This document shows positions 3 to 60,437 of a DNA stretch of 64,000 nt, piece after piece. The stretch is from a virus (taxonomy: Duplodnaviria; Caudoviricetes): IMG/VR virus record IMGVR_UViG_3300014590_000001, positions 64,001-128,000 of that record. One strand, written 5' to 3'. Position numbers and translations under genes: made by a program. The notes beneath the pieces were generated by a model. It did not search any database. It was not told the origin of the DNA and saw nothing but the letters and a program-made list of their open reading frames with translations. Numbering within the stretch: position 1 is the first letter of the stretch; every line of letters begins with the position of its first letter.

Positions 3-3000
3 ACTAACTTCGATAGTTGGGGACAGTTCTGCTATTACTTGAAACGAAAACGTTTCGACGTTCTTCCACATACTGTTAGCGAAATTGCTGCTGGTGAGTA
101 TGGCTATGACGGACAGGCGCATTATTTCAAACAATTCGCACTGACTGTTTTTATGCTTTCAAATACAGGGCGAAGCATTAACGATACAATGGCGGCGGCA
201 ATTCGAAACGCAATCAAAGAAGGAATTTCTTTCGTTGTGTTGCAGAAAGGGCCGGGCGAAGGTGCTGCAAACTTTAACGCCATTTTCAATCCGATTGGTA
301 TCACTGCCAATAAAACAACAAGTATCGTCTGCACAGATCGCGCACGTTCTGCAAATATCGGTGCGTATGGAAATCATGTTGCATGGAATGGTGTTGAACA
401 ATTCCACTACAAATTGGCGTATCGTTCCGCTCAAGGTTATGGTTTCACTGATACCGGTGAGTCACGACAAACCGGAATTAGTGGACAGCCTGGGACGTGG
501 ATTCCTTTCATGTGCGCGGATGTTGATATCAATGATGACATACGGCAAGACTCTCCGTATTTCTTCAAAGATTATTGCTGCGCAGATCCAGAAGATGCAG
601 TGAGTGTTGATTATGATGTTACTGTTTTCCCGTACAAACCCGATACGTGGCGCAACGGAATTCAAGCAGGTTATCACAAAATAAATTGGAGCAACGACAG
701 CGCACAAAGTCTTGCTGCACGTTCACAATTTTTCTGCCACGTTGTTGGCTACGGCTACTCTCTCGCTAACAACAAAGAAGGTGGTTACTCAATTATAAAC
801 GGTACTCAGTACGCGGATGCGCGATCCCTGAACGTCTATAAAATCAGTAAAGCAACCCGCCAACTTGTTGAGCGTAGAAATTTTGATCTTCATGCGAGTG
901 GCGATGGTCAGCCTGACGGCATTGCTGCTGCGGCTGCGATGGCGGCATATTTGAATAGCATCGACGGAAACTATTGGGTTCTCGTCACGATGTTTGATGA
1001 ATGTTCTTATAATCATTTGGCTGGCGGATTACCTGCTGCAATGTATCGCATTGGCGCGAGCCGTCGTGTTTGGGAAGATGTAAACTTTCAATATCGCGGC
1101 GCATATAATTGTTTCGGTAGCCCCGGATTGGGAGAAGGAAACGCAATCAACGAAATGTACAAAGGAGAAATGTCCAGCGATCCGAATGCAATTTTCGATG
1201 TTGGCTATTCCTTTGATACAAACGGCTGGCCTTATATTACAGGTACGCAACTCTATTCAAAACCTTCTGTATCAAACAGAGGTCTTTTTAATGATCAGGC
1301 AAGTCAACACTCCAACTACTACAAAGTGTTGGACGATCCGGATGGAAGCCAGTATTACGGAGTGAAGCATACTGCGGAATTGCGTGATGTTCGCTTTAAA
1401 AAACTTCCGATGTATGAAGCAAAAGATTTTGTAGTAAGTGTTGAACATCCATGTATTGATCTCGGCAACTATCCTACGTTCTCTATTGATGATATTTCAA
1501 TTAAAGAGGGCAGCGACTACGGATACTCGACAGCAACGTTTACTATTACTGCGAGTGAAGAAGTTATGGGTCGTGCGATTTCGATGACTGTTCAAACTCG
1601 CGATGGTACTGCGCGATGCGTAAGCAGTGAAACTACTGCTCGACGAATGATTGCACCTAGCGGTAATTCTCCGTTCTCGTTTATTGATTATCAGAATACT
1701 CGCGTTGTGTGGGGCGGTAGTCTTGACGCATTCACCAACAACAATCTGGCAAACAATGCGCAAACCAAACAGTTCCTAACCAATGCAATTGATTGGCTTG
1801 GACACGGACACCGAAACGATAAGATTTTAATTGTTGGCGATTCCTTCACAGGAAGTTCTTACCCAACGAGCAACTATCGAATCAATGAAGGTGGTGCGAA
1901 CGATTTCGGAACAACGCTAGTAAACCATTTGCGAAACATGCAATTTCAAGTTGATGTTGCTGGATGGTCTACGCTTTACGGCGGTGCTCCTTCTGCAATC
2001 ATCTTTGATAAGTACGTTATCGTTATTTTTATTTCTGCGAATCCAAATGCGAATGCGAAAATCGGAATTGCATTTACGAAAGCGTTAGAAAACTCTGTTC
2101 GTCGTGGTACAGGTATGATGGTTCTTACAGGACAATCAAACGTGGCTGGTAGTGCGAACATGTTGGCGAACCGTTTTTATCTGAACTACTCCGGTTCGTT
2201 CTCCGGTGAAAACTTAAACGTGGATGCAGTTAGAAGTCAGATCGGTAGCCATCAACTTATTAACGGCATGTCTGGTGCGTGGGGCGGCCTCGGTGGTTTT
2301 TCTGATGTTCGAACAAATGGAGGCGTTGGAGATCCACAAGACTACATTCCAATTGAACCGCGACAGCTTACGTTCCCTGTAGGCGCGAAAACAATGCAAG
2401 TGTCCGTACAAGTTTATCAGGACAGACTGACAGAAGGTGATGAATATTTTTATCTCGTTCTTTCTGATCTCTCACGTTCTGAATTTACGCGCGATACTGG
2501 TATGTGTACGATTCTGGATGATGATGGTACTCCGTTCGGTAGTGCTGCAAGTTCCGGCGGTCAAGGTGTTGAATGGCGTCGTCAGCTTTACCGAAATAAC
2601 ACTGGCGTATTTATTCTTTGGTCGGAACACTATAATATTCCAGACCGTGTAGATATTTTCCGCGATGGTGTTTGGCTTGATTCAAGTCCGAAAGGTGGAC
2701 AAGCGCCTTACGATTATCCGTCTGGCCCGATTTATCGCAACCTTCCGAACTCCGGCGGTCAGCATGAAATTTATATTCCTCACTATGCTGAACTTGATTA
2801 CACAACTTATTACGATGTGCGTATGCAGGGTACTGGTGACGGTACTGGATGGGATTACAACACGCGTGATGACAGTGTGAAAGGAATGTCTGGAAGTTTC
2901 AACTCCGGAAAATATGGCGGTCGTGTGTTTATTCACAACGTTGAATCGCAGCCTCGTCGTGGTGCATTCCGAATCAAAGTTGATTGGACAGGCGGTAATG

Positions 3001-3158
3001 GTGAAATGCACTTGCGCCGTGTTGGTGTAACTGCGGTTCGTGCTACTACTCGTGGAACATTCTATTTGGATCACGATACGACACGCGACTTCAAATACAT
3101 TGAAGTCTTCTTCAGTGGCACAAACTGTACGTACACAATCTCGGTTGTCGATCTGTAA
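3..3158 (+). CDS. Large virion adhesin/fibre-like protein (ILEI/GG domain, split Calx-beta domain, GATase-like inserts); 5'-truncated by the window edge
   Basis: The frame is open from nt 3 (TNFDSWGQFCYYLK). ILEI-like segment RSLNVYKI...NFDLH...AYLNSID..YWVLVTMFDE...RIGAS...YRGAY..FG. Calx-beta halves PTFSIDDISIKEG...TRDGTA and DYIP...LTFPVG...EGDEYFYLVLS...TILDDD. Confidence 0.75.
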   Translation, partial: TNFDSWGQFCYYLKRKRFDVLPHTVSEIAAGEYGYDGQAHYFKQFALTVFMLSNTGRSINDTMAAAIRNAIKEGISFVVLQKGPGEGAANFNAIFNPIGITANKTTSIVCTDRARSANIGAYGNHVAWNGVEQFHYKLAYRSAQGYGFTDTGESRQTGISGQPGTWIPFMCADVDINDDIRQDSPYFFKDYCCADPEDAVSVDYDVTVFPYKPDTWRNGIQAGYHKINWSNDSAQSLAARSQFFCHVVGYGYSLANNKEGGYSIINGTQYADARSLNVYKISKATRQLVERRNFDLHASGDGQPDGIAAAAAMAAYLNSIDGNYWVLVTMFDECSYNHLAGGLPAAMYRIGASRRVWEDVNFQYRGAYNCFGSPGLGEGNAINEMYKGEMSSDPNAIFDVGYSFDTNGWPYITGTQLYSKPSVSNRGLFNDQASQHSNYYKVLDDPDGSQYYGVKHTAELRDVRFKKLPMYEAKDFVVSVEHPCIDLGNYPTFSIDDISIKEGSDYGYSTATFTITASEEVMGRAISMTVQTRDGTARCVSSETTARRMIAPSGNSPFSFIDYQNTRVVWGGSLDAFTNNNLANNAQTKQFLTNAIDWLGHGHRNDKILIVGDSFTGSSYPTSNYRINEGGANDFGTTLVNHLRNMQFQVDVAGWSTLYGGAPSAIIFDKYVIVIFISANPNANAKIGIAFTKALENSVRRGTGMMVLTGQSNVAGSANMLANRFYLNYSGSFSGENLNVDAVRSQIGSHQLINGMSGAWGGLGGFSDVRTNGGVGDPQDYIPIEPRQLTFPVGAKTMQVSVQVYQDRLTEGDEYFYLVLSDLSRSEFTRDTGMCTILDDDGTPFGSAASSGGQGVEWRRQLYRNNTGVFILWSEHYNIPDRVDIFRDGVWLDSSPKGGQAPYDYPSGPIYRNLPNSGGQHEIYIPHYAELDYTTYYDVRMQGTGDGTGWDYNTRDDSVKGMSGSFNSGKYGGRVFIHNVESQPRRGAFRIKVDWTGGNGEMHLRRVGVTAVRATTRGTFYLDHDTTRDFKYIEVFFSGTNCTYTISVVDL

Positions 3159-12955: not shown

Positions 12956-15168
12956 TGAGACTTTTAGGAAGCAATCTTTTACCGTTTAGCGTGGCGCAAC
13001 TTCCCGCAACATGGAATACAGGAATTGAAGTCGAAGCGTATTTCTTCGAAGGCAATATTCCTGACGATCTTTCGCAATACTTTTTAGATCAACGCAAACT
13101 GATTGCCGATAGTGTTGCTGTTTCGCGAATTGTTCTTCAGCCCACATCCGACGGTCTAATGTTCCATCAAGCATATTCCCACGGCGTTAAAGCCGTTGCG
13201 GGCAGTGTATATGATCCGAAACTTGGCGTAACGATTCACTATCCGAAAAATATTATTCCGCGTCGTACTACGGCAAGCTCAAGCGCGATGGATATTGATG
13301 CAGCCTACGCGGTTGACCTGATGACCGGAAATAAAAAACTGAAACAGCATTTGTCGCTGTCATTATTTCCTGGGTTTCCAATCAACGCCGTGCGTACACT
13401 GACAGATTTCGTCGGCAACACTAACGGTCAGATTGCTACGGTTTGCGATTTAGTTTTTGATCGTTTGATTACCTTCGACGCTGCTCTGTCTGACACTCCA
13501 GATAAAAGCGTTGCAGGTGCATTAAATATTATTGCACAATCAAGCACGGCAGGTTCAACTACAATCGGAACTAACTCGGCACTAACTGTTCCAATTAACG
13601 TAGCAACCAACGCAGCAACTACTCCGATCACAACCGATATTCTTCGCATTGGTGGAACCGCAAACGCTCGTCGAACATTGCCTGTAAGTATTGGAGATAA
13701 AAGCACAGCACCAGTAACGAAAAATATTGGTCATGCGATTCTGGTTATTCCTGATAGCAACAACGGTGCGCTTGCAGTAGGCAACTACGATATTCGATTG
13801 ATGGCAACGAAAGTTGGTGTGAAAGGTAGCGGAGAATTAATTGAAGTTGAATCGCTTTCTGTTTCTTCTGGTGAGTTTGTTGAAGTGATTCAAGTTCGTA
13901 CCGCAACCACAACATATATTCCTGATGGCAGTGCGCTGGATTGGATTGATCCTAATGCAACGTTTGCACTTGATGCTTCTCGCTTCTCTTCTGTTCCTGT
14001 TACGGATTATCTCGGCGTTCCGTTTACGAATTCTGGATGGGTGGCTAATCCGGATGGCAGTATTACAAGTGTCTTGAATAGTGCAATAACAATTCCTGCC
14101 GCTAACTTTACGCTGGACATTACGAAAGCATTCTATATTGAGTTTGACTATAAACAGGATGATATTTCTACACACGCTGAAATGAATATGCTTCAGATTC
14201 ATACCAGCTACACTGATAGATTCATTCTGTCTTTTGATCGCAGCAATGAAACTGGTTTCTGTATTTGGAACAACCAGCAAGGCACAGTAATCTCACGCGG
14301 CTGGGCTAACTACAGCAAACTTCTTTCAAAAGAATTTGTGAAGTTTCGATATGAATACAATGGAAATTCTGTTCATAGCGTTTATATTGATGATGTTCTT
14401 GTCGATCAATTCACTCATTCCAATAAGGCTTGCTCTATTCCTAACGCTCAAATCAGAGGGCCATATGGAAGCGATGCTTATCCGAAAGCAACCATTCGTA
14501 ACTATCAAATGGTGCAAGGAAAAAAGTCTAATCCTGGAGTTACTATTGACAGTTCTGGCATATACACGCTCCAGAATGTTTCTACAGGCGAATCAAACAA
14601 TGTGTATGTTGAGAAAGTTGGCGCAGAAGAGTATATGCTTATCGCTAACTGGACAAGTTCAGGAACGGCAGACAGAAGTTGGCGTGACATGACGCAGAAG
14701 GGATTTAACTTTGTTCCTTACAACGAATTGAACGATCCGGAACGTCCTGCTTGGCCTACTCCCGTATTAAACAATTCTGATAAGTGGATGTTTACTTCAG
14801 ATTGCGCAGGTTGGGTTTCTCGTTACGGCGCATATTTGATTGCCAACACTTTCGATAGCAGTAAAACTCAAATTGCAGTTGGCGAAGCAATTCCAGTTAA
14901 CACTCCGCTCGGAAATAAAAATATTTATTCCGGAAGTTCTGCTTGGTCACAAGTTACCGCAATGACAGATCCTATTCGCTTGTGGACACATCCAGATAAT
15001 TCTGGCCCTTGCGGTGGTGCTGGTATTATTGGTACAGACAAAATCTGCCCAATCATTTCTGCCTCATGGGGTCAGGTTGCTTCAAGCTGGCACACAGATC
15101 AAACAGGCACTAAACGAATGTATCTGAAGCTGGACTACACAACATTTAAAGTAACAGCGAAAAAATAA
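12955..15168 (+). CDS. Scaffold-family protein with discoidin-like, ConA/LamG-like and fibrinogen-like domains (putative receptor binding)
   Basis: YFFEGNIP...VGVKGSGELI scaffold. FYIEFDYK...VYIDDVLV...IRNYQM is ConA-like. SGIYTL...VYVE....YMLIA is fibrinogen-like. Confidence 0.65.
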   Translation: MRLLGSNLLPFSVAQLPATWNTGIEVEAYFFEGNIPDDLSQYFLDQRKLIADSVAVSRIVLQPTSDGLMFHQAYSHGVKAVAGSVYDPKLGVTIHYPKNIIPRRTTASSSAMDIDAAYAVDLMTGNKKLKQHLSLSLFPGFPINAVRTLTDFVGNTNGQIATVCDLVFDRLITFDAALSDTPDKSVAGALNIIAQSSTAGSTTIGTNSALTVPINVATNAATTPITTDILRIGGTANARRTLPVSIGDKSTAPVTKNIGHAILVIPDSNNGALAVGNYDIRLMATKVGVKGSGELIEVESLSVSSGEFVEVIQVRTATTTYIPDGSALDWIDPNATFALDASRFSSVPVTDYLGVPFTNSGWVANPDGSITSVLNSAITIPAANFTLDITKAFYIEFDYKQDDISTHAEMNMLQIHTSYTDRFILSFDRSNETGFCIWNNQQGTVISRGWANYSKLLSKEFVKFRYEYNGNSVHSVYIDDVLVDQFTHSNKACSIPNAQIRGPYGSDAYPKATIRNYQMVQGKKSNPGVTIDSSGIYTLQNVSTGESNNVYVEKVGAEEYMLIANWTSSGTADRSWRDMTQKGFNFVPYNELNDPERPAWPTPVLNNSDKWMFTSDCAGWVSRYGAYLIANTFDSSKTQIAVGEAIPVNTPLGNKNIYSGSSAWSQVTAMTDPIRLWTHPDNSGPCGGAGIIGTDKICPIISASWGQVASSWHTDQTGTKRMYLKLDYTTFKVTAKK

Positions 15169-44142: not shown

Positions 44143-45237
44143 TTATTTAGTGACGCGGCCTTTAACAGCAGGAAGAGGATTGTAATCTTCCATAGTGAAA
44201 TATTCAGCCGTGATATTTTCCAGAAGTTCTTCCGGAGTCATTGAAAAGATCTTGTCGTCGATACGCAGAATTGGATACTGCATCGGCTCGCCAGTTTTAC
44301 GAACTTTTTCTACCAGCGTCAGGAATTGATCGTATTGTTTGTTCAGCGCTTCCCAATGATGATCGTAAACGTGCGTGTTCGTTGTGTCGAAAGTAATGCT
44401 GCCAATATTCAGGCCGCAATATTTCGCGAACAGATGGAACATCGCAGTGTATCCCGCGACGTTGAACGGGAATCCGAGCAGCGTATCTGATGAACGCAGG
44501 AATACACTCAGGTGCAAACTTTCTTCGAACGATTCACCGTGCGCGTAACGCATGATCGTTTGCTCGTACATAGTGGACGGCAGAACGTTGAATTCGAAAC
44601 CAGTGTGACACGGAGGCAGACCTTGCATGTTCACGTATGCCGGATTGAAAGCCTGAACACGAATGCGACGAGAGCGCGAACGATCTTTAATATCGTGCAG
44701 CGCATTCAGAAGTTGATCAACGTGACCTTCAACCAACATGCGACCGTCTGCCAGTTCAGTAGCTTTACCGCCGCGCTCAACCATGCGCATCATTTCTAAC
44801 GTGTTGCGAGTTTGTTCGGCAACGGTTTTGCAATCTTCGGTACGCGGGAAGATTTTAATGTCAGGCCAACGTCGCCACATAGCGCCGTAAATCGGGCCAC
44901 ACTCGCCATCTTCGTCTGCCCATTCATCCCAAATCTTACTGTTAAGAGAATTGATATTTGTTTCGCCGCGCATGAACCAACAGGTTTCATCTACAGCAGC
45001 AACCCAATTCTTTTTAGCAGACAGTGGCAGAGGAAACGCCGCAGCAGTATTCGCCAGTTGCATTACGCAGCCGGGAACAGTTTGCCAGCGATCTTCTGTA
45101 CGTTTCGGATCTTGTACCGGACGACCTTCTTCGCGAATCAAATCAACACGACCCATATACAAGCAATCGTAATTGTCCAGCGCGTAGGCGTTGAAGTCTT
45201 GCTCACGGCGCAGATCCAGTTGTGGATATTTACTCAT
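44143..45237 (-). CDS. thyA: Thymidylate synthase
   Basis: E..WF..G.TNI, IWDEWA, GPIYG..WR, SRR, LPPCH, RSSD..LG.PFN, HVY..H. Confidence 0.92.
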   Translation of the reverse strand: MSKYPQLDLRREQDFNAYALDNYDCLYMGRVDLIREEGRPVQDPKRTEDRWQTVPGCVMQLANTAAAFPLPLSAKKNWVAAVDETCWFMRGETNINSLNSKIWDEWADEDGECGPIYGAMWRRWPDIKIFPRTEDCKTVAEQTRNTLEMMRMVERGGKATELADGRMLVEGHVDQLLNALHDIKDRSRSRRIRVQAFNPAYVNMQGLPPCHTGFEFNVLPSTMYEQTIMRYAHGESFEESLHLSVFLRSSDTLLGFPFNVAGYTAMFHLFAKYCGLNIGSITFDTTNTHVYDHHWEALNKQYDQFLTLVEKVRKTGEPMQYPILRIDDKIFSMTPEELLENITAEYFTMEDYNPLPAVKGRVTK

Positions 45238-46108
45238 TGGTTCCCTTATCTTCTTCGATGGTAACACGGCTCAGAGCGCACTTCTCAAACTTGTATTGTT
45301 CACCGATATAAATACCGTCAGTGGTTCCAAATACAAGCGTGGTTAAAATTCCGAAGCAGTCGAAAACAACTTCGTCGCCCTGAATAGAATTTACAGTTAA
45401 TGTATCGCCAGAGAAAATCTTCTTATCCATAAGTGCCTGAAGATTTCGCGCACTCAAAATAAGATAGTCAACAGGCGCTCGATCAAAGTTTCGTTGCAGC
45501 AAGAAATTGGTGCGGAAATGGTGCAGCGTGATTGTATGCAGATTGCCTTTCTCGTCGTGATAGTTCACATACGGGCACGGCTGATCTTTATTGGTTACGC
45601 TATCAACTACAGCAAACGAAATTTCTTGTTCGTATTCCATGTGACCTACCGCATTAAATTTTCCAGTAGGTACAGAGAATTCGTGATACCACTTCGAACC
45701 GACAGCAGGGAAATCAATTTTGTTTGCGGCGTAAGCAGCCAACGCGACCAAACGATCCAAAGGAGTTTCAGACGCATTAGATTCATTGTCACGCATTTTG
45801 AACTTGCGAATAAACTCATGCGCCGGACGTGAGTAAATTGCGTATCCGTTAGCCGTCATATAGGTGACAGTAAGAGGCCACTCAATTCCATGAGCGTAAG
45901 AGTTTGACACAACCTGAATGGTATAAAACTTTTCGTTCTTGTAGTGTTGCCAGATAGTGCCTGGAATTAAACGTCCTTCGCGGAACATTTCGCGAGCGAT
46001 TCGTTCGTACTTGCGATTGAGATATTTTTCGCGCAGCAAATAGACCAGCAACAGCGCCATGCAGACTTTGATGAAATAGAAAATAGCTTCGCCAACAGTT
46101 ACAATCAT
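45230..46108 (-). CDS. Membrane-anchored DUF1653-like protein
   Basis: N-terminal TM segment; WQHYKN..Y....V.Y.....YSRP..EF. Confidence 0.6.
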   Translation of the reverse strand: MIVTVGEAIFYFIKVCMALLLVYLLREKYLNRKYERIAREMFREGRLIPGTIWQHYKNEKFYTIQVVSNSYAHGIEWPLTVTYMTANGYAIYSRPAHEFIRKFKMRDNESNASETPLDRLVALAAYAANKIDFPAVGSKWYHEFSVPTGKFNAVGHMEYEQEISFAVVDSVTNKDQPCPYVNYHDEKGNLHTITLHHFRTNFLLQRNFDRAPVDYLILSARNLQALMDKKIFSGDTLTVNSIQGDEVVFDCFGILTTLVFGTTDGIYIGEQYKFEKCALSRVTIEEDKGTNE

Positions 46109-46569: not shown

Positions 46570-47346
46570 TTAACAGATAGTTTGAGTCATTCGTTTTTCG
46601 GACGCGTTGATATAATCCACAACTTCTTTTTCCGGAATATGAATCAACGTAAAACCTTCAGCTTCCAGCAGATGATCAGTAATGCGATAACTGCGAGAGA
46701 AAACAATAGTGCGAATATCGCTGTTCAGGCGCAGGAAGTTCAGACAATCAGGACACGGTGAATCCGTGATATACATTGTGTCGAATCGAACATCTTCGCA
46801 CACGCACATATTTTTGATCGCGTTTACTTCAGCGTGAACAACATCCGGAGAAGACAGAGTGCAAAGATTATCTTCACACGTATTCTCGTAACCGACTGGA
46901 GTACCATTAACGCCGCTACTTAAAATAACAGGCGGTTGATTTGGAGTGCGACGAACGATCAATGCAGCACATGCGCGACGGCGAGATTTTGAAACGTTAG
47001 CCAGCATAAACGCCGCAGATAAAAACGGATAGTGTTGGATACGATCCGCAATTGGAATAGTTCCAAAGTGTCCGTTCAGTTCCAGATGAATCACACACTC
47101 GGCAAAAGTATCGTGAGCGAAAACAGGAATACCTTCAAGCTCAGGATTCAACAGGCGACCGCCACCATCAAGGCGCATAACTACAGGCATGATCATACTG
47201 CCGTTATGCTTTACCTGTTCCAAAGTATCAAACACAACGCTGTCTTGATCGTGCTGATTAGTCCAGAAATGCAGAGTGCGGATCAGACTTTTGTTTTTGA
47301 TCGTTGCCGGACGAATAACCAAAAACGCTTTAACTTTCGATTCCAT
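46570..47346 (-). CDS. dCMP deaminase with N-terminal extension
   Basis: SSGVNGTP.G..N.CE, HAEVNAI, SPCPDC. Confidence 0.85.
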   Translation of the reverse strand: MESKVKAFLVIRPATIKNKSLIRTLHFWTNQHDQDSVVFDTLEQVKHNGSMIMPVVMRLDGGGRLLNPELEGIPVFAHDTFAECVIHLELNGHFGTIPIADRIQHYPFLSAAFMLANVSKSRRRACAALIVRRTPNQPPVILSSGVNGTPVGYENTCEDNLCTLSSPDVVHAEVNAIKNMCVCEDVRFDTMYITDSPCPDCLNFLRLNSDIRTIVFSRSYRITDHLLEAEGFTLIHIPEKEVVDYINASEKRMTQTIC

Positions 47347-48329: not shown

Positions 48330-48590
48330 TTACAGTTTTTTGATTTGTACCATACGTACAATCAGACCCTGCAATTTAGCTTGTTTGGCACACGCTTCCG
48401 AAACATCTTTCCAGCCGTCTTTACCGTCCATCAGTGCGACCTGATAGCGAGTTTCGAAACTTTCAGGATTTTCAGTAGTAACCCAAACTTTTTTATCCAG
48501 AAACGCTTGAGGAAGTTCGTCCGGAATTCCAACCCAAACACCCGCGCCCATGAGAGTGGTTACGAATGGCCCAGCCACATTTTGAGTCAT
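48330..48590 (-). CDS. Hypothetical protein
   Basis: GAGGA RBS before MTQNV. Confidence 0.55.
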   Translation of the reverse strand: MTQNVAGPFVTTLMGAGVWVGIPDELPQAFLDKKVWVTTENPESFETRYQVALMDGKDGWKDVSEACAKQAKLQGLIVRMVQIKKL

Positions 48591-48600
48591 GAAACTTTCC

Positions 48601-48795
48601 TCAGATAATACAGCCGCCACCTTCGCAGTTGTTGGAAGGTTCGAACGCCTCACCGCCGCCGTCACGTTTCGCTTCAATCGCAGCTTCATCGATCTCTAAC
48701 GAATCGAAAAAGTTTTGCTCGTCGAATGGATCGGATGGATTATTGTTTTTAGGGAAAGCGCTTCCCTGCGCAAGAATATCGTCAACCTTACTCAT
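48601..48795 (-). CDS. Acidic peptide ending in an NrdA-like C-x4-C tail
   Basis: AAGGA RBS; C-terminus NNCEGGGCII. Confidence 0.6.
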   Translation of the reverse strand: MSKVDDILAQGSAFPKNNNPSDPFDEQNFFDSLEIDEAAIEAKRDGGGEAFEPSNNCEGGGCII

Positions 48796-49522
48796 TGTCA
48801 TTCCTTACAGCACGTAAATGATTTGCCGCAGTATTTGTACGCGACGGTTTGCCTAACAAATAAATCGAACCTGCGCCCGTCATAACAACTACACCGCCAT
48901 CTTCAGCAAGTGCAGCAGGATAGCGATAGATGATCGGTGCGTCATTGAAACGCGTAATCATACTACCTACCATCGTACCGTTTTCTTCGCGAAGATATTT
49001 TTCGGTATATTCGAACGCAGTTTGCAGAAGCGGATGAAGATTTGGCATCCCAGGAAATGCGAGACAACGAGATTGCAGTTCTTCGTCGTACTCTTCTTTC
49101 ACCAAAACTTCTGCGCAGTACATGGCGATATTAGTATCAACCAAACGGCGAGCGCATTGAATCAAAACAATTTCTTCGTGAAGATTCACACCAAACTCAA
49201 ACGCCTCAACAATCTGTTCTTTCGTGAGAATGTCTTTGTATCGGTGAAAAACTTCTGTCAGAAGATCCATGCTCAGTCCGGCGATAACAATATTCACCAG
49301 ATGATTTGAAGAAGGAATGCCTACGTGATACGTGCGCCAAACATCATTGAGCAGATCGAGATCTTCGTCTTTGAGCAGCAGAGCATTGCGAACAGCCTTA
49401 CCCTGAATGTCCAGAAACATCGGACTAGCGCCAGTGCGAACTTGTTCACCTTCCCATTTCGCATACGCTTCGAATCTTCCCAAACTTTTGGCAGAGATAG
49501 CACTGAAGTTTTCCATAATCAC
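48788..49522 (-). CDS. Hypothetical protein
   Basis: 244-aa ORF. Confidence 0.65.
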   Translation of the reverse strand: MIMENFSAISAKSLGRFEAYAKWEGEQVRTGASPMFLDIQGKAVRNALLLKDEDLDLLNDVWRTYHVGIPSSNHLVNIVIAGLSMDLLTEVFHRYKDILTKEQIVEAFEFGVNLHEEIVLIQCARRLVDTNIAMYCAEVLVKEEYDEELQSRCLAFPGMPNLHPLLQTAFEYTEKYLREENGTMVGSMITRFNDAPIIYRYPAALAEDGGVVVMTGAGSIYLLGKPSRTNTAANHLRAVRNDNE

Positions 49523-57623: not shown

Positions 57624-60437
57624 TTATTTTTGTCCTATTCTACGCGTCCTCACTGAACCAATCGACAAGCCTGAACCGATAGAAGACGAAGCACTGCCTG
57701 TATTCTTACGGCCTTTGGTCATACCCAAACGAGAAGGATCGCGGTTAACGTGAACTGCCTCGCGGATAGTCAATTCTTCCTCATAGTTGCCACACTCGAA
57801 ACCGTAAACCATCAGCGCCATTGCTCGCCAACTATCATCCGTTGCGCCCATGTTTTTAATAACACTGCGTCCGGTATCCTGTACGGTTTGAATCTGCATA
57901 ATAAGGTGTTCAGTCGGTTTGTTTTCGAAGCAATACGGATATTGTTCGCCGTCATAAAGAAGCGTGTCACCGATTTTTTCTGCATGTTGCATTCGCGGTA
58001 AACTAATGCGTGGAATTTCTGACTCCAACATTGTTTTAACTGTCCAAAGATCGCTGTACTTCAGACTGTATTTATCCGCAGCTTCAATGCCACCTTTTAA
58101 TTTGGCATCTTGCAGAAGTTTGATTGAGTTCCATTGGTCAGCCAGCAAAACTTTTACGTTTCGTTTGTGACACAACGGAATAAGAAGTTCATCAAATATC
58201 AGTGTGTAGTTCAGAGGAATCCCAGGCAACGGAATAATCTCTGCAATACAATCCACGCTAATAATTCCCGCAGCATTTCGGGAACCAACAACCATCGCGA
58301 AACTGTTATTACTGAAACCAGCATCGAGCGCCATAATACTAGGCTGAGTTGTTGTAGCGGCTTTCAACAATGTACCGTAACGTTGTTTGGAACCGTCTTT
58401 GTGTCGCACAATCTTGTGAGAGTATACGCACATGTTTCGGCCTTTCTCTCGAATCGCTTTGGAAACGAAAACAGGCTGAGTGATAAACGGATTCGCAGAC
58501 AACGGGGCTTCTGCCCCATAGTCACGCGCAGCGCCAACAGGATCGCGTCGGAATGCTTCTTCCAAGAACGCACTGTTACGCGGCATCGTTGGGTTCATCT
58601 TCCACGTAGGCGCATGAATGCCGAGAAGTTTTGAACTGCCGACACTACTTCGCATTAGCTCGTTGATTTTGTCACGCGCATGAACAGGACTACTAACGTT
58701 AAACATGTATCCAGTAAATGCGCGATCATAACCCGCAGCAATAAGTTTATTTTCTGCCGCACGAACAGTAGCAAGAGATCGATCAAGTGCGCCGTAAACC
58801 ATACCAGCACTTACTTTAACTTTCTTACTGTCTGCATCGTTATCAAAGTATGCGATTTCATCGAGTGCGCCGAAGATACGTGTACGACCACGCAAGATAC
58901 GACCGTCTGGGCCAGCAGGATAAACAATCAAGTTACGGTGTCCGTATAACACAAACGTGTCACGAATCTTCATTACTTCGATACCGTATTTTCTTTCTTG
59001 TCGCCTGATAACTTCGTGATATTTTTGGAACCACGGACTATCAGATATCATGTTGAAGTACGGTGTCCACAAAGTATCTTTCGCTTGTGATTGCGTCAGC
59101 GCTACGAAAGTTCCGTGAAGAATTGTCGTGTTACTGATTCCAAGAATACCAGTGGGAGACTGCGACTTTAAGATGATATGTGTGAGATACGTGGAACACA
59201 TTGCAACAACGATTGACTTACCGCTGTTATGGTTGAGCAAGCCACCTGCAACGAATTGCGGCATCCCTTCCATAACCAAGTCATACGTTATTTGATCTTC
59301 CGTGTCTTCAATGCTTTCAATTTTTATAAACAGAGACTTTGAGACAACTGGAATATCAAGGTCAAATATAACAGAATACTCATTGCCAACATTTCTGACA
59401 ACAGGCAGATAGCCAGCGTTAAGAAGGATAGACCAAGCCATTTGAGCCATCGACTCGCTGGCGGTATACACATATTTATTTTCATTAGATATCGAGTTAC
59501 GTCGTAAGTATTCCAGCGCAGCATCGCGTGTAGCAAGGCCAGCTTCTTCAATCGTCATAGGCAACGTGACTTTCTTGCCCCAAACATTCGTACCTACGCA
59601 AAGTTGGACGTGATCATCCGTGGTCAGTTTTTTAACGCGCTTGAATCCAGTTTCCGTTCGCAGAGGATGATCGGGAGTTGCATCAATGTGCATTCCGTTT
59701 TGCAGCGTTACGCGTTTTGTTGTTCCGTTCGTACTAACGTAAAGCTGTTTGATCTTCTCTAACTTATTTCCTGTACTCGCTTTCATATTGCTGAGGCGAG
59801 GAACATGGAACCCAGGAGTATCGTGACCAATAAACATATGACTAATAGGCAACAGGCCGCGCTCTGTAATAACAGGAGTGCTTGCGCCTACACAACGTTG
59901 TCCTGCGTTTACTGCAAGTTCGTTGTAGAAGTTCATTTCTTTATTGTGCATCAATTCGCTACGACGCGCTTCGCACTTTGGACAGGCACCATGCTCAAGA
60001 AGAACAAGGTGCTTTTTAATTCCTGCCAAACCTTCTTGCGGTTCGTGCGCTTCAGTTGGCAACCAATCCAGATCGCTACAGCGAGGACAGATTTCACCAA
60101 ACAAACGCAAGCCAATTAATGCCTGTTCAAGATACGGCGATTGCTTCAGGAAGTTGGGGGAAGTAACCCACTCCAAAAAGTTTTTCGCTTGTGGACACGC
60201 GCTATCATCGAATTTTAAATCTCGTGGCACTAGCGATTTATCTTTCAACGCCGTGTCTACGAGATCAACGATATTTACTTCACCTTCATTGAGAAAAGAA
60301 ACATCCGCTGTTTTCTTATCTTCGACGAAAGTTAAATCCTCGCCATCTTCATCTTCGTTATCGTTCAACAAAGTTTCGAAAGCTAAAATGCGCTTCGGTT
60401 TTAATTGAAGCGCAGGTGGTTTAGGTTTCTTTGCCAT
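57624..60437 (-). CDS. terL: Terminase large subunit (intein-containing)
   Basis: Walker A GQR/SGKS interrupted by an intein, LRGRT, Walker B ALDE, SSP, nuclease ALDAG...DQWNS...DD. Confidence 0.85.
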   Translation of the reverse strand: MAKKPKPPALQLKPKRILAFETLLNDNEDEDGEDLTFVEDKKTADVSFLNEGEVNIVDLVDTALKDKSLVPRDLKFDDSACPQAKNFLEWVTSPNFLKQSPYLEQALIGLRLFGEICPRCSDLDWLPTEAHEPQEGLAGIKKHLVLLEHGACPKCEARRSELMHNKEMNFYNELAVNAGQRCVGASTPVITERGLLPISHMFIGHDTPGFHVPRLSNMKASTGNKLEKIKQLYVSTNGTTKRVTLQNGMHIDATPDHPLRTETGFKRVKKLTTDDHVQLCVGTNVWGKKVTLPMTIEEAGLATRDAALEYLRRNSISNENKYVYTASESMAQMAWSILLNAGYLPVVRNVGNEYSVIFDLDIPVVSKSLFIKIESIEDTEDQITYDLVMEGMPQFVAGGLLNHNSGKSIVVAMCSTYLTHIILKSQSPTGILGISNTTILHGTFVALTQSQAKDTLWTPYFNMISDSPWFQKYHEVIRRQERKYGIEVMKIRDTFVLYGHRNLIVYPAGPDGRILRGRTRIFGALDEIAYFDNDADSKKVKVSAGMVYGALDRSLATVRAAENKLIAAGYDRAFTGYMFNVSSPVHARDKINELMRSSVGSSKLLGIHAPTWKMNPTMPRNSAFLEEAFRRDPVGAARDYGAEAPLSANPFITQPVFVSKAIREKGRNMCVYSHKIVRHKDGSKQRYGTLLKAATTTQPSIMALDAGFSNNSFAMVVGSRNAAGIISVDCIAEIIPLPGIPLNYTLIFDELLIPLCHKRNVKVLLADQWNSIKLLQDAKLKGGIEAADKYSLKYSDLWTVKTMLESEIPRISLPRMQHAEKIGDTLLYDGEQYPYCFENKPTEHLIMQIQTVQDTGRSVIKNMGATDDSWRAMALMVYGFECGNYEEELTIREAVHVNRDPSRLGMTKGRKNTGSASSSIGSGLSIGSVRTRRIGQK
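59226..59894 (-). mobile_element. Intein (223 aa) with degenerate endonuclease remnant
   Basis: N-terminal CVGASTPV, block B ATPDHP, block F/G TYDL......F.AGGLLNHN followed by Ser+1. Confidence 0.9.

Follow-up and report, generated by a model that had tools for sequence, protein, structure and literature searches.

The microprotein gene studied here lies on the minus strand of the window, a 64,000-nucleotide stretch from the genome of a jumbo phage that is complete at 256,657 bp with terminal repeats. The closest relative of this phage is Dickeya phage JA11 (genus Salmondvirus), which matches about half of the region at 78% nucleotide identity. The features of the locus are collected in Table 1. 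The gene is tightly coupled on both sides: its start overlaps the stop codon of an upstream 244-residue open reading frame and its stop shares nucleotides with the GAGGA of the next frame, which has its ATG at 48590. The encoded protein ends in NNCEGGGCII, directly followed by the stop codon, and carries 14 Asp or Glu residues against four Lys or Arg residues. The AlphaFold2 model (pTM of 0.24) has short helices at residues 2–11 and 37–45 and is coil for the remainder, consistent with a mostly disordered protein. The initial annotation, which had described an acidic, probably disordered 64-residue product with its own ribosome-binding site and this C-terminus, is thus confirmed. The differences from the JA11 copy fall mostly at third codon positions (12, 10 and 22 at the first, second and third positions, respectively). 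An overlapping 119-residue alternative frame (48330–48689) was rejected as a gene, as it is neither open nor conserved in JA11. Scans for promoters and terminators around the gene gave only chance-level signals.

Database searches returned no named family. The 64-residue protein had no match in Pfam, its relatives matched only unnamed families in PHROGs, and the matches in the ESM Atlas were all below 0.9. The best PDB profile match, a response regulator (E = 0.04), was dropped because it did not include the cysteines.

Table 1. Positions in the window of the microprotein gene, its elements and two neighbouring genes.
Feature	Position	Strand	Basis
Microprotein gene (P0001), 64 residues, acidic, probably mostly disordered	48601..48795	-	Open reading frame; about 90 relatives
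Shine-Dalgarno sequence AAGGA	48802..48806	-	Sequence, 6 nt 5' of the ATG
Optional N-terminal helix, residues 1-11	48763..48795	-	Common to some members; missing in members of 38-50 residues
Acidic-hydrophobic motif L/F-D-x-hydrophobic-D/E-hydrophobic, residues 24-35; candidate docking element	48691..48726	-	Blind motif search, PSSM tests
Short helix followed by RDGGGE, residues 37-49	48649..48687	-	AlphaFold2; echo of the RDG (R735-G737) at the start of the NrdA tail
C57-x4-C62-I-I with free C-terminus, residues 57-64	48604..48627	-	Equivalent of NrdA C754/C759; invariant cysteines, profile match to nrdA 751-761
dCMP deaminase, downstream neighbour	46570..47343	-	PF00383, E = 5.5e-11
Thymidylate synthase (thyA), downstream neighbour	44143..45240	-	PF00303, E = 4.8e-56

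A Dam-like methylase gene lies upstream of the microprotein gene, and the genes for dCMP deaminase and thymidylate synthase, already noted as nearby in the initial annotation, both lie downstream on the same strand. That annotation had also remarked on the lack of an adjacent ribonucleotide reductase (RNR) gene. The absence extends to the complete genome, in which no match was found to PF02867, PF00268, PF13597 or PF17975 (NrdA/NrdJ, NrdB, NrdD and monomeric class II RNR, respectively), and profile searches likewise found no thioredoxin or glutaredoxin; control genomes gave matches in these searches. Elsewhere in the window, a 937-residue gene upstream of the putative portal (57624–60437, minus strand) matches the intein splicing domain PF14890 and probably encodes an intein-containing terminase, and a 1,039-residue protein (39–3158, plus strand) with Calx-beta and ILEI domain matches probably belongs to a tail or whisker fibre.

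Likeness of the C-terminus to the NrdA redox tail

The C-terminus of Escherichia coli NrdA is DDGCESGACKI, in which the cysteines are C754 and C759. The microprotein resembles this redox tail (residues 737–761) in having an acidic flexible stretch that leads to a cysteine pair placed two residues from a terminal Ile at the extreme C-terminus, with an RDG-like motif upstream. A terminus of the form C-x2-4-C-x-I/L occurs only once among the 1,329 open reading frames of at least 30 residues in the genome. A tblastn search with the microprotein identified 66 phage records, and profile searches retrieved 47 proteins and, from 1.84 billion representatives, 59. The same form of terminus is present in 91 of the 92 proteins retrieved (64 Cx4C, nine Cx3C and 18 Cx2C); P0070 (1,664 residues) was rejected as a false positive. 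The initial annotation had proposed examining the terminal CxxxxC in homologues; both cysteines prove to be invariant, with a variable spacing. As the strong profile matches score 60–80 bits, against a cut-off near 36, relatives without the cysteines would be expected to have turned up. The uniqueness of the terminus in the genome and the invariance of both cysteines in the relatives indicate that the dithiol tail is more than a chance feature.

The likeness extends to the residues around the cysteines. The octamer CESGACKI or CEGGACKI ends 79 of 80 Enterobacterales NrdAs and is present exactly in 17 members of the family; the copies of AD1 and Alexandra end in GCESGACKI, exactly as E. coli NrdA does. 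The tail studied here, GGGCII, differs from the host octamers at two positions. When searched against the E. coli chromosome, the family profile gave a single match, to codons 751–761 of nrdA (its last 11 codons; E = 0.099), and in each of three further host genomes it gave one match, in an NrdA-sized frame. A GGGE-like sequence is found in 75 of the 91 members and R[DNS]GG in 35 of the 91, and the distance from the RDG-like motif to the first cysteine is 13 residues here, compared with 14–19 in the NrdA tails seen. The proposal that the protein mimics the C-terminal tail of NrdA is therefore well supported at the level of sequence, in agreement with the close likeness claimed in the initial annotation.

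Most members are short: 62 have 70 residues or fewer. In the 23 of 91 that exceed 100 residues, the tail module lies at the C-terminus of unrelated domains. Some of these long proteins have the beginning of the short form in their interior and could be fusions of neighbouring genes. P0084 joins the module to a circularly permuted YpsA/SLOG domain (PF12694), which belongs to a nucleotide-binding family.

The microprotein differs from NrdA in being encoded by a separate gene, without the catalytic barrel or Y730/Y731, in having an acidic-hydrophobic motif and a helix upstream of the tail, and in the variation of the cysteine spacing across the family from Cx2C to Cx4C. It is not a member of the NrdA, NrdB, NrdJb or thioredoxin families; its sole match is to the NrdA redox tail as defined by sequence. 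With 64 residues, no Pfam match and no PF02867 barrel in the genome it is not a class Ia α subunit, the comparison with NrdJb was negative, and it lacks a thioredoxin fold with an N-terminal CxxC. No description of the family was found in the literature covered, which was largely open-access. New here are the size of the family, the statistics of its tail relative to the hosts, the co-occurrence with lone nrdB genes, the chromosomal copies with NrdA-like tails and the test of the upstream motif.

Distribution in phages and bacteria

The carriers belong to several unrelated phage groups. They include the Salmond/Alexandra/Sasquatch/Yoloswag group, the 53-kb phage phiEcoM-GJ1, a phiEco32-related phage and a lambdoid prophage, together with PCH45, Miami, RAY, AH04, phiR1-37, FBKp24 and others that we group with the phiKZ-related jumbo phages, in part from their shared tail-sheath matches. 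In the Alexandra/AD1/Y3/Yoloswag clade the gene lies downstream of the dCMP deaminase gene, and between this gene and thyA where the region covers both. The copy in phiEcoM-GJ1 (L244:3077–3217; about 14576–14716 of NC_010106) is unannotated in RefSeq; an annotated tRNA-Arg immediately precedes it, and thymidylate synthase follows after about 1.6 kb. The copy in the lambdoid prophage (L116:5001–5144) sits between the antiterminator gene Q and the lysis cassette, a typical position for an accessory gene.

A profile search that matched the positive control, phiKZ, found NrdA in none of 27 carrier records (this genome and 26 others; completeness is 61–79% for three of the records, and another is a provirus of 42 kb). 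Free tail copies were in turn found neither in phiKZ nor in four viral contigs that bear NrdA. The resulting anti-correlation between peptide and NrdA is weak, because the carriers are interrelated and because RisingSun, Goslar, N1M2, pEt-SU, OBP, Aphrodite1 and phiEco32-like phages have neither NrdA nor a detectable peptide, the absence of NrdA being common in these groups anyway. Divergent copies were also sought by DNA pattern in RisingSun, Goslar, N1M2, pEt-SU, OBP, Aphrodite1 and phiEco32, with matches at chance level only, and a 72-residue phiEco32 frame ending in CDGCTI was not counted because the rest of the motif is missing.

The co-carriage of a lone nrdB is more telling than this anti-correlation. 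PCH45, RAY, AH04 and phiEcoM-GJ1 each carry the peptide together with a host-like nrdB, and in the phiEco32-related metagenomic phage (L122:1–5141, on a 105-kb contig) the genes for NrdD, its radical-SAM activase (nrdG) and DNA polymerase A lie just before the peptide gene; those sequenced relatives of the latter phage that were searched have neither nrdD nor the peptide. The occurrence of the peptide beside a lone nrdB in four phages, or beside nrdD and nrdG in one, indicates from gene content that these carriers invest in nucleotide reduction. Full-length host-like nrdB genes in records without nrdA were seen in seven phages in all, namely PCH45 (L042:1408–2514) and, as L221–L226, RAY, phiEcoM-GJ1, pEt-SU, AH04, N1M2 and OBP, among which pEt-SU, N1M2 and OBP have no detectable tail peptide.

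Free-standing copies also occur outside phages. In the host order, one of 301 genomes has a copy, directly after ubiK and between rep and catalase, and in the family of that genome (Gammaproteobacteria) six of 121 genomes have chromosomal copies. These are surrounded by housekeeping genes, and no phage genes were recognized within 1.5 kb. Three of the six end in CAGGACKI and three in CSGGACKI, and the four NrdAs read from the same bacterial family all end in CAGGACKI. From this context and from the shared CAGGACKI terminus, the peptide family, as judged by sequence, also resides in bacterial chromosomes, with a tail like that of the local NrdA variant. Of the chromosomal copies (L328–L334), those of two genomes are beside ubiK, rep and catalase, and those of two others are near a dihydroorotase-like gene that was recognized by eye.

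The upstream motif and the predicted complex with NrdA

A blind motif search of 60 non-redundant members identified the L/F-D-x-hydrophobic-D/E-hydrophobic block 22–33 residues before the first cysteine. Its resemblance to the α-docking tail of NrdB (R2 peptide 356–375; PDB entry 1R1R, chain D; hydrophobic pattern V-x4-L-x2-F-x-L) was first seen by eye and afterwards tested. In its hydrophobic spacing and acidic composition, the family motif modestly resembles the last 11 residues of NrdB. With a PSSM of the motif, the E. coli NrdB tail ranks first among 836 C-terminal 11-mers, although 151 of 241,886 windows score equally or higher (shuffle p of 0.024–0.11). In the reciprocal comparison, a profile of the NrdB tail scored 240 on the family, against 114 ± 23 in shuffles, with 27 of the 60 members (which are not independent) in the same register. 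The copy of the motif in the present protein, however, scores no better against the NrdB-tail profile than shuffles do (p = 0.76). The likeness of the motif to the NrdA-docking tail of NrdB is thus modest and confined to the level of the family, and we treat it as a lead. The NrdB tail has a free C-terminal position on a di-iron radical subunit, whereas the motif is internal, has no equivalent of Y356 and occurs in a genome without a match to PF00268.

The complex of the microprotein with an E. coli-type NrdA from which its own tail had been removed (residues 1–737) was predicted with a score of 0.59, compared with 0.01 for the best control, and no interface was returned. At least 56% of the contacts agreed between prediction runs, and the pLDDT of the partner was at least 47. 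In the benchmark, 58 of 80 solved pairs and two of 110 mismatched pairs reached the mark; those that did so with a score of 0.60 or under were only seven of the 80 solved pairs but both of the mismatches. The score of 0.59 may also reflect memory of solved RNR–peptide complexes. The prediction therefore gives weak support to a contact of the microprotein with NrdA.

Possible roles in ribonucleotide reduction

The explanation that best accounts for these observations, to which we assign a probability of about one half, is that the microprotein is a free-standing accessory redox arm that would help to re-reduce the class Ia NrdA of the host in trans. As the phage has no RNR, such an arm would have to act on the enzyme of the host. 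The α tail of class I RNR moves back and forth between thioredoxin and the active site, where it contests a single pocket with the substrate, binding of the two being mutually exclusive; the β tail is essential for formation of the RNR complex and, in a trapped E. coli α2β2 complex, shows density on one side only (PMC11903788). In the proposed mechanism, thioredoxin or glutaredoxin 1 of the host would reduce the C57/C62 pair, as with the tail of NrdA, which in isolated form (residues 737–761; PDB entry 1QFN, chain B) binds glutaredoxin. The acidic-hydrophobic motif and the helix may hold the peptide on host NrdA, perhaps in the cleft for the NrdB tail, and a linker of roughly 24 residues would then let the cysteines into the active site, where the disulfide would be re-reduced in trans. 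The arm would in this way supplement or replace the tail of NrdA itself and provide more dNTP for phage replication. A boosting role is favoured by the retention of both cysteines and by the co-carriage of nrdB or nrdD. Counting against it, the NrdA of the host comes with a tethered tail of its own, which makes the gain from a free copy far from obvious, and the GGGCII terminus departs at two positions from the octamers of the hosts.

The β-tail density seen on one side only makes a vacant NrdB-tail cleft plausible. A more specific picture, less likely than not, is a chimeric two-motif microprotein, an undescribed accessory subunit of class Ia RNR, that would dock in this cleft of host NrdA and swing a second NrdA-type dithiol tail into the active site. 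Such a subunit might be native to some Gammaproteobacteria and have been captured repeatedly by phages lacking NrdA, some of which add nrdB, so that all but the catalytic subunit would be supplied. If the peptide is a trans-acting arm, a gene of 50 residues, compared with an enzyme of 760 residues, would explain the dNTP supply of 200–300 kb phages without RNR. It would also be a natural reagent for the long-standing question of whether a partner in trans can serve the re-reduction half-cycle, and whether this half-cycle limits the output of RNR.

The same anatomy could inhibit, given the competition of tail and substrate for one pocket and the essential role of the β tail. A two-point inhibitor or dampener of RNR, functionally analogous to yeast Sml1 and to R2-tail peptides, in which the upstream motif competes with NrdB for the NrdA cleft while the tail plugs the active site, is in our estimate unlikely. 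It draws on both directions of the NrdB-tail comparison and on the mutually exclusive binding of tail and substrate, and the predicted complex fits it equally well. A phage could use such a protein to keep dNTPs under the level that sets off dNTP-sensing defences, and in a bacterium it could act as a regulator; the defence systems DRT2, DRT4 and DRT9 respond to dNTPs raised by NrdAB (bioRxiv 10.64898/2026.10.27.754916; PMC13434031). However, phages that lack RNR need dNTPs for genomes of 200–300 kb, the four carriers that bring their own nrdB would be opposed by a competitor of NrdB, and both cysteines, which a plug or a covalent trap would presumably not need, are kept in every member. Booster or dampener alike, the peptide would act on the dNTP levels sensed by the DRT2, DRT4 and DRT9 defences, and if inhibitory it would be a natural two-point RNR inhibitor. 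The dampener, the conserved upstream motif and the chromosomal members in bacteria all go beyond the options given in the initial annotation.

We hold it to be comparably doubtful that the tail recruits thioredoxin or glutaredoxin for another purpose, either diverting reducing power as a decoy or handing it on to some non-RNR partner that the N-terminal part or a fused domain would select. The free NrdA tail peptide does have a solved structure of its own (PDB entry 1QFN, chain B). The long members with unrelated domains, the lack of a phage-encoded thioredoxin or glutaredoxin, and the copy after the Q gene of the lambdoid prophage, outside any nucleotide cluster, would also suit an adaptor. 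Yet the acidic linker, the terminal Ile and the RDG-like motif copy NrdA beyond its cysteines, and some of the long forms may be the neighbour fusions considered above. A decoy is possible but disfavoured: a dithiol substrate that is reduced and then released would make a poor sink, and a trap would be expected to lose the second cysteine, which all members keep.

The two remaining explanations carry little weight beside an arm for the host enzyme. The initial annotation had suggested that the peptide might complement a phage RNR that lacks its tail, and the nearest precedent for the microprotein is indeed a split enzyme, the class II RNR NrdJa/NrdJb, in which the C-terminal region of RNR is likewise on a separate chain, NrdJb (PMC9669993). 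The four RNR profiles, however, found neither an NrdA gene, with or without a tail, nor any of the other three RNR families in the complete genome, and the 26 other carrier records are also without NrdA; barring a very divergent RNR missed by all four profiles, the suggestion is refuted for this phage and we regard it as virtually untenable. That the gene is a functionless remnant of a lost nrdA, or the product of chance, is scarcely more credible. The RDG-like motif and its spacing to the first cysteine do suggest descent from the 3' end of nrdA, but the gene has its own ribosome-binding site, intact frames and invariant cysteines across unrelated phage groups and bacteria, its differences from JA11 are concentrated at third codon positions, and the conserved upstream motif was not found in NrdA. 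In its possible role the microprotein is comparable to two small proteins that act in trans on enzymes of the RNR fold: yeast Sml1, which inhibits RNR and is not a dithiol shuttle, and GrcA/YfiD, the 'spare part' of pyruvate formate-lyase, a replacement C-terminal module that carries a glycyl radical.
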